From Candidatus Atabeyarchaeum deiterrae (GTDB lineage: Archaea > Asgardarchaeota > Atabeyarchaeia > Atabeyarchaeales > Atabeyarchaeaceae): DNA of 64,000 nt. Both the position numbers and the translations under genes were made by a program. The notes below the pieces were generated by a model that was not told the DNA's origin, made no database searches, and saw only the letters and a list, made by a program, of their open reading frames with translations. Shown one piece after another: positions 48,761 to 60,936 of the stretch (position 1 is its first letter; every line of letters begins with the position of its first letter). The DNA lies in the NCBI GenBank assembly GCA_037310415.1, contig CP147780.1, forward strand, positions 2,592,001 to 2,656,000. The letters run 5' to 3'.

Positions 48761-48874
48761 TCACATCTGGAAGCCTGTTTTGCCAGCACCCCATTTCGTC
48801 AAAGCAGTCTTAAGCTCCTCATGATCCTCAGCATAATCACTAACCTTAATCCCCTGCATCACAGCATCAATAGC
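48761..48874 (-). repeat. rbcL-like 3'-end repeat, copy 1
   Basis: Encodes AIDAVMQGIKVSDYAEDHEELKTALTKWGAGKTGFQM-TGA. Confidence 0.92.
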
Positions 48875-49016
48875 CCACCTGATGTTGCCTGTATGGATTT
48901 CGGCGCCTTGTGTCATCTGGCGAGTGCGCCTGCAGTGTGTTTCCCAAGAGGGATGGTCTTGGTTGACGCACAACGTTTAAGTAGCGGAAAGTTGGTGGGA
49001 TAATTGGTGGGATTAT

Positions 49017-49259
49017 ATGACCGACGAAGCTGTTATAGATGACAAAGGAAGGGTCGCCATTCCGAAACGGATACGGAACAAACTGGATCTGCGAGAAGGT
49101 ACTCGAGTAAAACTGGAACTCGAAGAGGGGAGAGTAGTAATAAGGAAACCCGTCGACCCAGCGGAATTCATCGACAAAATGGAAGGATTCATAAAAGAAG
49201 GTTCCCCCATTCAGAAAGCCGACCCCCTCAAACTCAAGGAGATATGGGAGAGACAATGA
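49017..49259 (+). CDS. AbrB/MazE-type antitoxin
   Basis: IDDKGRVAIPKRIR..L..EG. Confidence 0.88.
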   Translation: MTDEAVIDDKGRVAIPKRIRNKLDLREGTRVKLELEEGRVVIRKPVDPAEFIDKMEGFIKEGSPIQKADPLKLKEIWERQ

Positions 49260-49672
49260 TCTACGTAGATGCCAACTTCTGGATCTACTGGTTCGACCAG
49301 CGGCTACCAGAACATAAGCATGTTTTGAGACATATGAGGCAAGTTATCCAAGAAGGTGTCATTCTAAATGTCGTCACCCTCATGGAGGTAGCTCACTATT
49401 TCCGCAATTTAGCGGCAGAGGAATTTCGCGAGAAGCTTGACACGATTCAGAGCTTGACCACGTTGAAGGTCGTCAGCCTTGATCTGGATCTAGCTAAATC
49501 GGCATTCGACAAACTAGCGAAATATGCCAAGATTGGAGTCGGAAGCAGAGACAGTGTTATCATAGCGACGATGGAATCGGTGGGTACCAAGAGAATAGCC
49601 ACCCACGATAGGGTCTTTACAAGAATCAAAGGACTAGAAGTCATCGACCCGATTCCAGCCAACCTTGCATGA
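49256..49672 (+). CDS. vapC: VapC PIN-domain toxin
   Basis: YVDAN, EV, DSVIIAT, THD; ATGA overlap with the antitoxin. Confidence 0.88.
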   Translation: MIYVDANFWIYWFDQRLPEHKHVLRHMRQVIQEGVILNVVTLMEVAHYFRNLAAEEFREKLDTIQSLTTLKVVSLDLDLAKSAFDKLAKYAKIGVGSRDSVIIATMESVGTKRIATHDRVFTRIKGLEVIDPIPANLA

Positions 49673-49730
49673 CTAACAAAAGCGAAATCCAAAAGAAGAT
49701 GTGGAGAGTTTATTGATTCTCATCAGGTTC

Positions 49731-49784
49731 TCACATCTGGAACCTGTCTTACCAGTACCCCACTTCGTCAAAGCGGTCTTAAGC
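49731..49784 (-). repeat. rbcL-like 3'-end repeat, copy 2 (short, 1-nt deletion)
   Basis: tcacatctggaacctgtcttaccagtaccccacttcgtcaaagcggtcttaagc, encoding LKTALTKWGTGKTG. Confidence 0.9.
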
Positions 49785-49799
49785 ATTGTTCGCGCATGT

Positions 49800-58352: not shown

Positions 58353-59300
58353 GTGTTCCTGAATATCGCAACTAATGATCTGAGGGCGGCAAAGCTCCTG
58401 CTTGCTGGGAAGCTTTACGCGCAGTCCATTTTCTATATGGAGCAAAGCGTGGAGAAGGCGGTCAAGTCGCTAGGAATAAGGCGTGGCGACATTACGCCTA
58501 AGGAAGCGAGACGGTATGGTCATAGACCATTACGCTACTATCTTAAATTCTTTGAGAATATCAAGACACAGATTAATGAGACACAAATAGAGACTGAAGA
58601 CATGGAAAAGAAGCACCCGATACTGGCTGACCTCTTTGTAGAACTCGGCATCTCTAGAATTGGAGCTCGATTGAATAAGGGAAAGAAGATGTATGAAGAT
58701 CTATTGAAATTGGCTTCGAGGTTTGAAGAAGAAGAGAAGCAAGATCCCGTGAAAGAAGAAAGAGCATTCAACATCGCAATTTCTGGCAGACCACTTGACC
58801 GTTATATTACTTGGTGGCGAGAACAAGAAAAACAACTCTACCGTTCTTGGCGCACGATTGGCCAGATCGAATCAAAGTCTTACAGAGATGAACTCGAAAG
58901 AGACATTCCAAGATTCCAAGAGATATTAAGAAAGCTTACTCCAAGACTGATTGCAGAACTACCTTCTGAAGACAAACTCACAACGCAAGGCTTAGAAAAA
59001 GCCATTGAAGGACTCCAAAAACCCAAAACCCTATCCCAGATCGACCGATTTGCATTTGAGTACGCAGGAAACAAGTTGTACGACGAGACTCAAGAATTCT
59101 TCTTCATCGGATCGCTGTTCTACTTAGCTCTACTGTTCTTTCCTCACGCCACTCGCGCTAGGTATCCAGATGAAGGGGTTGAGAATCCACTGTCTTTTTA
59201 TAGTGCCAGAAACCCACTAGTCCGAAGACTCGCCCAATTCATAGAAATTGCCGAGCACACACTGGATTTCATGAATAAATGGATTTTGGGGAACCCTTAG
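58353..59300 (+). CDS. HEPN-domain protein with a large helical insertion
   Basis: N-terminal A..DL.AA..L...LY.QS.F..EQSVEKAVK..GH; C-terminal HATRARYPD. Confidence 0.7.
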   Translation: MFLNIATNDLRAAKLLLAGKLYAQSIFYMEQSVEKAVKSLGIRRGDITPKEARRYGHRPLRYYLKFFENIKTQINETQIETEDMEKKHPILADLFVELGISRIGARLNKGKKMYEDLLKLASRFEEEEKQDPVKEERAFNIAISGRPLDRYITWWREQEKQLYRSWRTIGQIESKSYRDELERDIPRFQEILRKLTPRLIAELPSEDKLTTQGLEKAIEGLQKPKTLSQIDRFAFEYAGNKLYDETQEFFFIGSLFYLALLFFPHATRARYPDEGVENPLSFYSARNPLVRRLAQFIEIAEHTLDFMNKWILGNP

Positions 59301-59354
59301 CACACCACTCAACATAGAGAGCATTAAGCCACGTCCGACGACAATTAATACGCC

Positions 59355-59464
59355 CATTCTAACCCTGTTTTACCAGCGCCCCACTCAGTGAGAGCGGTCT
59401 TCAGCTATTCGTGCTCCTCAACTTAATTAGTGACTTTGATGCCTTCCGTCACCGAATAAATAGC
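59355..59464 (-). repeat. rbcL-like 3'-end repeat, copy 8 (most degenerate)
   Basis: Encodes AIYSVTEGIKVTN*VEEHE*LKTALTEWGAGKTG. Confidence 0.82.
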
Positions 59465-59544
59465 TTCCCAAGAACTACCAAGGTCACACAACGCGATGCA
59501 CAATAATGTACTGACGTCCGCGATCATGAGGCTCAGTTGCTTTT

Positions 59545-60564
59545 CTACACTTTGCCTCGCAAGACTTCTTCTGCGTATTTCACCAACAACTTCGTGATCA
59601 GAAGCACGCTCTCTGCATCTGCTCTCGTGACCACAACATCCTGTGGTTGATATTTCGGAGATTTCTTGAAGTCTTCTAAGTGCAAGTCGACGGATGAAAG
59701 ATCATTGAATAATGCGCACGCGCGAGACCATTTCACTCCATAGGCAAAAGTGCTTTTCCCAAGTTTTTCCCCCATCATCTTGTCAAGAAGACTCCCGACT
59801 TCTCTGCAATTAGCGTAGACTCCCTTTGTGTTCCACTGTCTAAAGCAGTTCTCTGCGTCTTCCACGTAGGCCCATGCTTCCTTAATGAGCCTCTCACCGC
59901 TTGGAATGCGAACAACGAAATACTCTCCAAGTCCTAGCTTCGGGGCAAAATCATTGATCCAGTCGGCAGAAGTTATCATCAGGTCACGGTTATAATGAGT
60001 GAGTCTATATGCAATGAAGCTTCGAGAAGTCCCTTCGCCAGTAAGAAGCTTGGGTTCGTTGGCGACTTGAGGGCGCATCCCCTGCTGTATGTGTATCAAT
60101 GGCGAGTATGGCGTGTCGCCATAAACTCCACGGATCTCTTGCTTAGCCAATCCCAGTGAACTGGGAGGTACAGCGTACACAGGAGAGATGGAAGCACGAT
60201 TCTCGGACGAAACAGTATGGAGGTGCAATGCTATTTTAACATCACCTTTTCTGTCTTCCATTCGCCGTGTCTCAAGATATTCAAGATCCAACGAAGTCAA
60301 GGCGATAACGAGCGTAGCTCTCCAAGTCTGCTTGGTTGGCGTCTGACGTTGAATCGAAAGATCTGTTGCCGCGACTTCGCCATACAAACCTTCCTGCAGA
60401 AGCAAGCTCCTAGCACCCAGCATCTTCTTATCATCAGTTTCGATATAACCATCAAGCCACAGAATCGCCTCTTCACGAATGGCATAAGTGATCTCTAGAT
60501 CAAACGCAAGGGCTGGAAGAGTCAGTTGATCATATGGTCTGATGCTTATCTTCTCCAAATCCAA
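59545..60564 (-). CDS. Hypothetical protein with possible C-terminal HEPN-like helical domain
   Basis: 339 aa ORF with SD; AW.YVEDAE..F...ANCR..H..ADAE..L tail. Confidence 0.6.
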   Translation of the reverse strand: MDLEKISIRPYDQLTLPALAFDLEITYAIREEAILWLDGYIETDDKKMLGARSLLLQEGLYGEVAATDLSIQRQTPTKQTWRATLVIALTSLDLEYLETRRMEDRKGDVKIALHLHTVSSENRASISPVYAVPPSSLGLAKQEIRGVYGDTPYSPLIHIQQGMRPQVANEPKLLTGEGTSRSFIAYRLTHYNRDLMITSADWINDFAPKLGLGEYFVVRIPSGERLIKEAWAYVEDAENCFRQWNTKGVYANCREVGSLLDKMMGEKLGKSTFAYGVKWSRACALFNDLSSVDLHLEDFKKSPKYQPQDVVVTRADAESVLLITKLLVKYAEEVLRGKV

Positions 60565-60876
60565 GTTTTCACCCCTCCTCTGACGGTCAGGGATAGAACG
60601 TAGCGATTCTATTTCAATACGATCCTATTAACAATGTCGTATCCAAAGGACAATTGAGTTTGTTGACCGCATGAACGATCATGATAGACGCTTACAAGCT
60701 AAGTGCTTTAGCGCAACATTCTTCAATATTTTTAAAAACTCAGTGCGTCGAACGTAGTTTCAAGGTTCTAATTGAATTAAAGAATCACCTAGAAGCATGA
60801 TTAGTTAGTCACCAATCGGCATTCAAGAGCCGAAACGATAAAGAAGAAGGGAATTTACTGGTTCCGTCTAGCTTCC

Positions 60877-60936
60877 CTACATCTGGAAACCTGTCTCACC
60901 TGCACCCCACTTAGTCAGAGCAGTCTTTAGCTCCTC
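60877..60936 (-). repeat. rbcL-like 3'-end repeat, copy 9 (short)
   Basis: Encodes EELKTALTKWGAGETGFQM-TAG. Confidence 0.9.

Follow-up and report, generated by a model that had tools for sequence, protein, structure and literature searches.

A probable gene-capture array behind the 3' end of a RuBisCO-like protein gene in Candidatus Atabeyarchaeum deiterrae

The subject of this study is a 64,000-nt stretch of the 2.76-Mb genome of the Asgard archaeon Candidatus Atabeyarchaeum deiterrae (contig CP147780.1; G000:2592001-2656000, called the window below), together with the sequence that adjoins it on the right (L016; window coordinate = L016 + 60000). An interval of 24.5 kb separates a conserved gene for an RsgA-type GTPase from a gene for a RuBisCO-like protein (RLP). 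Copies of the 3' end of the RLP gene, here called tails, divide this interval into units of mostly one or two genes. The tails are named c1 to c10 (c1 is the outermost displaced end and c10 the resident end of the gene) and the units M2 to M10. Unit M10, the resident tail and the RLP gene are in L016. Tails of two relatives, Atabeyarchaeia-1 (G001, chromosome CP147779.1) and LC30 (G002), are labeled d and e, respectively. A sequence-only reading of the window had proposed an integron-like cassette array delimited by copies of an archaeal form III RuBisCO 3' end.

A repeat search recovered all nine of the direct repeats given in that reading, in a single orientation, at window positions 48750, 49719, 53178, 54225, 56051, 56940, 57936, 59340 and 60866. 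Identity to the reference copy ranges from 62 to 100%, and a 6-copy subfamily reaches 132 nt. Minus-strand translation gives the peptide that had been quoted, ..AIDAVMQGIKVSEYAEEHEELKTALTKWG[A/T]GKTGFQM, which is broken by stops or frameshifts in copies 2, 4, 5, 8 and 9. The count of nine is correct for the window, but the total is ten, as another copy 7.3 kb to the right of the window is the end of the parent RLP gene (G000:2663320-2663470; L016:11270-11470). The repeat unit is also longer than had been described. It extends from 52 to 136 nt before the stop codon (-52 to -136) to about 45 nt after it (+45), and includes a pyrimidine/T-rich tract. By their 5' limits the copies form three groups, one near -136, one near -105 and one from -52 to -68. 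A core of ~50 nt (AAGACNGC...TTCCAGATG) and the 3' flank ending in the T/pyrimidine tract are kept in every copy, even the shortest. Genome-wide self-BLAST placed 25/49 short dispersed direct-repeat pairs of the genome in this 23-kb interval, which excludes chance. Another repeat family in this self-comparison consists of three paralogous tRNA-like genes with an insert after the anticodon region (G000:243846-243938, 246123-215, 266758-266856).

The repeats were examined for other signals. Folding of the 3' flank was no better than that of shuffled controls (mean z -0.13, 26 copies), and a conserved attC-like hairpin after the stop codon was rejected. No Rfam families were found in the window or in L016, and no terminal inverted repeats were found at unit ends. 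Alignment scores for further tail remnants within M10 stayed at background level.

The parent gene had been expected on the minus strand to the right of the window, and it was found there, ending in ..KWGTGKTGFQM. The protein has the domains and fold of the RuBisCO large chain (PF00016 E=4.9e-29, PF02788 E=1.9e-7), and the tail peptides match PF00016 as well (copy 6, E=7.4e-4; resident copy, E=6e-10). The repeats are therefore ends of a RuBisCO family gene, as proposed, but the assignment to form III was not sustained. The protein was checked for the carboxylase active-site set K175, K201, D203, E204, H294, R295, H327 and K334, which is incomplete. K175, K201, D203, E204 and H294 are kept, and R295, H298 and H327 are missing. 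The RLP reads PIMGHMDIAGA versus PIHVHRTMHAA in the form III paralog, which removes R295 and H298, and it has GADILLDPAPYGK where the paralog has GGDQLHTGTAAGK, which removes H327. A separate gene with form III motifs is located in the same genome at G000:200388-201590. The best NCBIfam match of the RLP is the MtnW-type enolase (253 bits, under the 409-bit cut-off), and the closest PDB structures are those of RuBisCO-like proteins or 2,3-diketo-5-methylthiopentyl-1-phosphate (DK-MTP-1-P) enolases (3fk4, 2oek). Judged by these matches and by its residues, the parent gene is a form IV RLP, MtnW-like, and not form III because R295 and H327 are absent.

The frame of the parent gene seems broken between GSGGG and IHAHP, where 28 nt are inserted. 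The insert folds as a canonical bulge-helix-bulge (BHB) with a 4-bp central helix (GCGG/CCGC), two 3-nt bulges on opposite strands (AAA and AAT), an outer helix and an inner helix (GCCCATC/GATGAGC), and RNAfold agrees with this fold. Deletion of the 28 nt gives GGGIHAHP and a 438-aa frame, and the junction in a spliced mRNA is predicted to read GGCGGCGGAATCCAC. The same 28-nt insert is found in Atabeyarchaeia-1 (~17470-17500 of L037, the 20-kb array locus that starts ~1.3 kb past the RsgA gene of that genome), with a compensatory C-G to T-A change and one mismatch repaired. Orthologs from other families and a metagenome relative (contig L048) read GSGG(G/A)IHAHP without the insert. The sole RNA-library contig over the site retains it and ends 4 nt past it, though contigs cannot reveal a minor spliced form. 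The RLP gene was treated as intact with a predicted BHB intron. A second frameshifting insert of ~25 nt is seen in the Atabeyarchaeia-1 gene between MDIAGA and SYSPITG (L037 ~17760-17800, minus strand) and not in the G000 gene. It also folds in a BHB-like manner, with a central helix of just 3 bp in the predicted fold.

Population data consisted of assembled Logan contigs, not raw reads; uncovered parts prove nothing. Contigs of four public runs from three studies cover the array piecewise, breaking at the repeats. Run X1 has an even depth of 11-14x over the array and supports the reference arrangement. Given this cover, the uniform X1 depth and equivalent arrays in two relatives, it is unlikely that an assembly error lies behind the array.

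The origin of the displaced tails was examined by aligning each copy codon by codon to the resident tail and counting synonymous (pS) and nonsynonymous (pN) differences. Well-kept tails individually have a pS of 0.19-0.52 and a pN of 0.02-0.10. Summed over the eight best-kept tails (c1, c3, c6 and c7 in G000, d1, d3 and d4 in G001, e3 in G002), pS is ~0.37 and pN ~0.07, a pN/pS of ~0.18. A comparable picture is given by the working G001 ortholog, with a pS of 0.66 and a pN of 0.07 against the resident tail. Because the differences are mostly synonymous, the tails diverged inside working RLP genes and not by decay in place; local duplication followed by decay would give equal rates at both kinds of site, contrary to the counts. 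The displaced tails are alleles from other working RLP genes, under protein-level constraint, which is in keeping with the earlier proposal that each module brings a replacement end. Along the array, tail variants of three types (GAG, GTG, GGGR) follow each other in alternation, and these types are found again in all three genomes. Tail decay shows no gradient with distance from the gene. The best-kept displaced end, c6, has TAT in the position of the stop codon, and its frame continues for ~31 codons (window 56858-57076, minus strand).

These counts bear on the explanation that the array is an artefact or a local accident, that is, a mis-assembly, or a gene end that was duplicated in tandem in place, then decayed neutrally and took up unrelated insertions. 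The breaking of contigs at repeats is in its favor, as is an exact 337-nt tandem duplication of the RLP end with nothing between the copies in one distant genome (G081:C10; L058, 2401-2742). The excess of synonymous differences contradicts neutral decay of local duplicates, however, and the inter-repeat content consists of unrelated intact genes. X1 depth is uniform, and the array was recovered in independent runs and in three genomes. We find this explanation very improbable.

Apart from one unit of 10.3 kb, the units measure 0.7-3.4 kb (mostly 0.7-1.8 kb, with one or two genes), and cargo genes are found on both strands (Table 1). The RsgA ortholog of Atabeyarchaeia-1 (74% aa; 2692666-2693742) is located just left of the array of that genome. 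The GNAT segment next to the G000 RsgA gene has no counterpart in the 20-kb locus L037, at whose RsgA-side end there is a DUF885 gene. The PEMT gene of M3 is common to G001 (81% nt) and to metagenome contig L052. M10 contains no replication or integration genes. Its weak PADLOC matches to mad1, mad2 and mad8 suggest that M10 may be a defence island like the methylation-associated defence system (MADS). The PIN gene of M7, the 159-aa open reading frame (ORF) of M10 and the RLP gene each have RNA-library contigs over them.

The 339-aa protein of M9 and the 341-aa protein of M10 are 46% identical and form the only family present in two units. In a database of 5.8 billion proteins the family has 21 members, and it has no Pfam domain. 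The C-terminal domain of the AlphaFold model (predicted local distance difference test score, pLDDT, 78.7) matches the HEPN structures 2hsb and 1o3u. Elsewhere, members adjoin a 157-aa ORF or a DNA methylase, or are found among housekeeping genes. Its members are probably defence or toxin proteins.

Table 1. Features of the RsgA-RLP interval and displaced tails in a second Asgard family. Coordinates are those of the window unless a locus is named. Identities, pS and pN refer to the resident tail.
Feature	Coordinates	Strand	Remarks
RsgA-type GTPase gene, conserved left anchor	45750..46868	-	PF03193 E=2.6e-48
Distal segment without tail copies: two GNAT genes	46991..48604	46991-47998 +; 48062-48604 -	PF00583 E ~3e-17 each
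c1, long class, outermost displaced end	48714..48882	-	82% over 171 nt; peptide intact; pS 0.29, pN 0.05
M2: MazE/AbrB-type antitoxin (49017-49259), PIN toxin (49244-49672)	48883..49708	+	PF04014 E=1.7e-9; PF01850 E=6e-15
c2, short class from ~-52	49709..49784	-	86% over 79 nt
M3, four- to five-gene unit: PEMT/ICMT methyltransferase (49800-50441 -), S-adenosylmethionine (SAM) methyltransferase (50546-51349 +), 207-aa unknown protein, PIN (52428-52805 -), MazE-like antitoxin (52802-53011 -)	49785..53187	mixed	
c3, long class	53188..53304	-	90% over 117 nt; pS 0.19, pN 0.07
M4: MNT nucleotidyltransferase (53528-53809), HepT RNase (53806-54177)	53305..54194	+	PF18765 E=5.8e-18; PF01934 E=3e-30
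c4, short class from ~-68	54195..54306	-	
M5: flavodoxin (54453-54941 -), LigB-type dioxygenase (55178-55996 +)	54307..56036	mixed	
c5, long class	56037..56198	-	internal stop
M6: 174-aa protein (56294-56818)	56199..56902	+	weakly TIGR04076-like, E=4.6e-5, below family cut-off
c6, best-kept displaced end	56903..57065	-	93% aa; KWGTGKTGFQM; pS 0.29, pN 0.02
M7: PIN toxin (57121-57594), VapB-like antitoxin (57507-57767)	57066..57941	-	
c7, long class	57942..58053	-	pS 0.52, pN 0.09
M8: 315-aa HEPN-domain protein (58353-59300)	58054..59360	+	PF05168 E=6e-9
c8, decayed	59361..59464	-	72% over 104 nt
M9: 339-aa protein (59545-60564)	59465..60839	-	beta-sandwich, then HEPN-like helical domain
c9, short class from ~-62	60840..60936	-	
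M10, gene-proximal 10.3-kb unit	from 60937, past window end (64000)	mixed	
M10 in window: 159-aa ORF	61172-61651	-	
M10 in window: HerA-like ATPase	from 62241	+	E=5.8e-10
M10 beyond window: 461-aa multi-helix-turn-helix (HTH)/nuclease-like protein	L016:4987-6372		
M10 beyond window: 341-aa beta-sandwich-HEPN protein	L016:7188-8213		
M10 beyond window: type IIG restriction-modification (R-M) enzyme	L016:8318-11023		REase_MTase_IIG E=3.6e-99
RLP gene	L016:11320-12664	-	RuBisCO large-chain homolog; 438-aa frame once the 28-nt insert is removed
28-nt BHB insert (predicted)	L016:11483-11510 (window-equivalent 71483-71510)	-	within GGG/IHAHP motif
Displaced tails, G033:C285 (L056)	1167-1442, 2481-2855		
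Displaced tails, G117:C74 (L057)	~2452-2490, 3662-3964		

The sequence-only reading had predicted that relatives would differ in cassette content at the repeat boundaries. They do. In G001 the interval between the RsgA ortholog and the RLP gene is 18.6 kb and contains nine tail copies. Its cargo is mostly different, and comprises HEPN/MNT pairs, ABM, DUF1801, a NIPA transporter, a glycoside hydrolase and a hydrolase. Four copies were found in G002 on an 8.8-kb contig. PEMT, LigB and the MNT-HepT cassette are common to G000 and G001 with 75-86% nt identity. The MNT-HepT cassette of M4 is 75% identical (nt) in G001, both flanking tails included, and 79% in G002, where the match extends into tail c4. 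LigB (86% nt) is inverted in G001 and lies on the other side of MNT-HepT. All items shared by G000 and G001 are in the distal half, and the five gene-proximal units of each genome have no counterpart in the other. This pattern fits growth at the gene end after the split of the two genera. Order varies within a genus as well: MNT-HepT and HEPN-MNT are in opposite order in G001 and G002, with orientation relative to the tails kept. The PIN cassette M7 (87% nt) is second from the array's outer end on metagenome contig Ga0315309_1000193. When the MNT-HepT cassettes are compared, the 5' arm of the downstream tail is similar in G000 and G001, and the 5' arms of the upstream tails vary in length in the three genomes. 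It follows that the cargo takes the 5' arm along at its gene-proximal side, in agreement with the Campbell model.

In a sample of 201 Asgard genomes, many copies were seen in this family only (11, 11 and 5 matches). Two genomes of a second Asgard family, G033 and G117, share a 272-aa membrane-protein gene that is flanked by two displaced RLP tails, and an AbrB-like gene lies outside the outer tail. A comparison of flank synteny at distant orthologous loci, which are short, gave no matches. Tail-core scans of genomes and metagenomes returned matches confined to the same lineage. Three more RLP-tail copies are located in G001 ~1 Mb from the RLP gene (L039:4983-5067, 6204-6283; L040:3955-4054). 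The two in L039 flank a 219-aa ORF and are nested in a 3.9-kb segment next to an ABC transporter operon, and that segment is bounded by a different 101-nt direct repeat (L039:2491-2591, 6379-6479).

We consider it probable that the RsgA-RLP interval is a gene-capture array in which cassettes are captured by a mechanism that acts in trans. Each incoming unit would carry the last 52-136 nt of the RLP gene plus ~45 nt of 3' flank and would undergo Campbell-type recombination with the end of the resident gene. Every such event would regenerate the full RLP frame with the imported end and push the previous end outward, and the array would grow at its gene-proximal side. Since the units carry cargo only, recombination must act in trans. 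The agent could be a site-specific recombinase that recognizes the ~50-nt core, or host homologous recombination that uses the tail as portable homology. Circular intermediates, a crossover within the core and an enzyme in trans are parts of the scheme that we infer. As a class, the 3' flanks are so similar that none can be attributed to a particular side. The cassette-array model of the sequence-only reading is retained for its repeats, parent gene, imported ends and turnover, and abandoned for the form III identity and a recombinase nearby.

The recombinase was sought in several ways. Pfam, NCBIfam and PADLOC scans of all larger ORFs found no recombinase, transposase or replication domains in the array. 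The sequence-only reading had advised a look for a tyrosine or serine recombinase, but none is in or near the array; in whole-genome searches the distance to the nearest PF00589 match is >600 kb in G000 and >100 kb in G001. Elsewhere in G000 there are a host XerA homolog (G000:2038804-2039286) and a 434-aa integrase (G000:497401-497943). The 339/341-aa paralogs were considered as a hidden recombinase and rejected, as they have a beta-sandwich and a HEPN-like domain and no recombinase fold. This family was not found in G001 or G002, though both have arrays. For the 461-aa multi-HTH protein of M10, also tried as a recombinase, Atlas and PADLOC gave just HTH and weak nuclease-like leads, and no recombinase can be recognised in it. 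Integrated elements have been described in the same host lineage (18 elements; PMC11529989), among them Yucahu-i, with a tyrosine integrase and AATTAACTTAT as its 11-bp att motif. L016 does not contain this motif, and the nine in-window repeats were not searched for it.

Such elements raise the alternative that the array is a graveyard of plasmid- or virus-like integrative elements which entered the RLP 3' end in succession, lost their integrases and most of their genes, and left cargo and att scars as small units that are not mobile. The innermost unit, at 10.3 kb, is element-sized, Atabeyarchaeia genomes hold integrase-bearing integrated elements elsewhere (PMC11529989; PF00589 matches), and archaea offer documented cases of tyrosine-recombinase elements that integrate at the 3' ends of protein genes and use one site again in tandem (PMC6563490). 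No integrase or Pfam-detectable integrase fragment, however, was found in the ~23 units of the three genomes' arrays. The units are compact, and the stretches between tails are taken up by intact operons of one or two genes. M10 itself, with no genes for replication or integration, is a defence island that encodes type IIG R-M, HerA-like and HEPN proteins. Relatives have the same cassettes in another order or position, which decay in place does not yield. A graveyard is, in our estimate, unlikely.

A different explanation dispenses with a dedicated system. The tails would be portable homology through which RadA-pathway homologous recombination loops cassettes out and in and swaps segments between related cells. 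The lack of a recombinase in or near the arrays is compatible with this, as are the ragged 5' limits of homology. It is also favored by at least three unrelated gene tails that are duplicated in one genome with no common core. Besides the RLP tail, a 736-aa minus-strand gene has a second copy of its end 2.7 kb downstream (G000:126470-126561, 129143-129234), and the atpB end occurs three times over 19 kb (593337, 594236, 612310). The atpB and 736-aa gene repeats share no sequence with the RLP core, and therefore one site-specific enzyme cannot serve all three. A stretch that is identical in c9 and c10 (-15 to +33) could be a gene-conversion patch. On the other side, copies that are 62-93% identical over 60-170 nt are a poor substrate for homologous recombination, there is no homogenisation, and distinct tail variants stand side by side. 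The first acquisition of a tail by a cargo gene is left unexplained. Since the 3' limit is fixed, the 50-nt core universal, and the short copies cluster at -52 to -68 in six independent cases (c2, c4, c9, d8, x2 and partly d7), the repeats look more like a defined minimal site than like random homologous exchange. We hold homologous recombination alone to be quite unlikely.

Contigs were also examined for strain variation. Depths of contigs in run X3 are step-wise, ~26-34x from M8 to the left part of M10, then 51x, then 110x in the R-M part, with a sum of >200x at the RLP gene. A low-depth joint in X3 would delete M10 exactly, and in a ~93%-identical variant the tail core abuts the start of the HerA gene. 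Weak joints at c9/c10 and c6/c10 were found among the contigs. The X3 depth steps and joints are hints of strain-level differences, not proof. In contig placement, several apparent joints were c1 and c2, from outside the stretch used for placement, mapping onto c6 and c10. One RNA-library contig links the c6 3' flank and the RLP body by way of 44 nt that c6 and the resident tail have in common. It comes either from a strain whose array is shorter or from chimeric assembly.

Several points weigh against trans-acting capture at the gene end. Neither an excised circle nor an empty site was demonstrated, and the contig joints are weak (depth 2.5, 21-nt side) or explicable by the 44-nt shared stretch, which is longer than the assembler word. 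No candidate enzyme was found. The tail core had no matches on viral contigs, so there is no known vehicle. Tails c9 and c10, identical from -15 to +33, differ at 6/~46 positions just upstream, and such an identity is not predicted by a simple one-crossover model unless the donor came from the same population. Finally, the RLP gene itself is 83% identical (nt) between G000 and G001. The shared cassettes are about as diverged as the gene, so that part of the array is old and inherited vertically, not recently mobile.

The logic of capture at a gene's 3' end has precedents. Cis-mobilizable elements (CIMEs) beside the integrative and conjugative elements (ICEs) ICESt1/ICESt3 at the fda 3' end, and composite islands of staphylococcal cassette chromosome (SCC) and pseudo-SCC elements at the rlmH/orfX 3' end, reportedly arose by tandem accretion with integrase-less members. 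As in the array described here, the target is the 3' end of a protein gene, the end is restored by incoming DNA, direct repeats of the gene end stand between units, and some units have no recombinase, which in those systems is supplied in trans. They differ in that Int or Ccr is encoded in at least one unit or species, whereas none is found in the ten, nine and four units of the present arrays. The units here are also much smaller and more numerous, and the host is an Asgard archaeon. Two features of an integrative element, displaced target fragments and a regenerated target, are present, while a cognate integrase or helper is not.

Chromosomal integrons (IntI, attI, attC) have reportedly been found in Archaea as well. 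The present array resembles them in its ordered small cassettes, mostly of one or two genes, in cargo of the toxin-antitoxin and acetyltransferase type, and in insertion at one end. Unlike an integron, it has no adjoining IntI and no attI or attC, and its delimiters are colinear coding gene ends. Genes are in both orientations with their own flanks, and are not co-oriented behind a common promoter. In its working the array is integron-like, yet it falls outside that family; the comparison made in the sequence-only reading fails on IntI, attC and co-orientation alike.

Tycheposons and tRNA/tmRNA islands (Islander model; bioRxiv 10.1101/2020.12.28.424599; PMC4383910) share with this array the pushing of older arrivals deeper by new ones, scattered partial copies of the target, adaptive or defence cargo, and an extent of which the greater part cannot be recognised as an active element. 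Their target is a tRNA gene, whereas here it is the end of a protein-coding gene. Thaumarchaeal elements (PMC6563490) are closer in being archaeal, in using the 3' end of protein genes, in supplying a new stop codon and in tandem re-use of the site. Their att sites are mostly <25 bp, and they are multigene elements with integrases or casposases in two-member arrays. Here, by contrast, the repeats are 60-180 nt, ten copies are present, and there is no integrase. The integrated elements of the same host lineage also have type IIG R-M enzymes as mobile cargo, and the text that describes them (PMC11529989) contains no mention of RuBisCO or gene-tail arrays. No published description of an integrase-less gene-tail array was found in the literature searched. 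The present array stands apart in having many small units, in the complete lack of a recombinase in the arrays of three genomes, and in its host; capture at a 3' end was already known.

We tentatively suggest, with less confidence than we have in the array itself, that Asgard archaea may possess a general, undescribed form of gene capture. Cassettes of one or two genes, each tagged by the last 50-140 nt of a host gene, would be inserted and reshuffled behind that gene, either by a new recombinase encoded elsewhere or by an enzyme-free, homology-guided process. The RLP array, with ten tails here and nine in Atabeyarchaeia-1, would be among the largest examples.

No known organisms are more closely related to eukaryotes than the Asgard archaea, and the question of how these acquire foreign genes is still open. 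Arrays of this kind preserve, in the DNA itself and in order of arrival, the repeated capture of genes at one fixed place in the chromosome. The imported gene ends identify the donors as related lineages, and the cargo is mainly toxin-antitoxin and defence genes. Complete genomes and deep metagenomes from one wetland site exist for this organism, which makes the proposal testable. If units move without a recombinase of their own, there is either a new recombination system or short portable homology suffices for cassette exchange. Either outcome, if true, would alter the annotation and modelling of archaeal flexible genomes.

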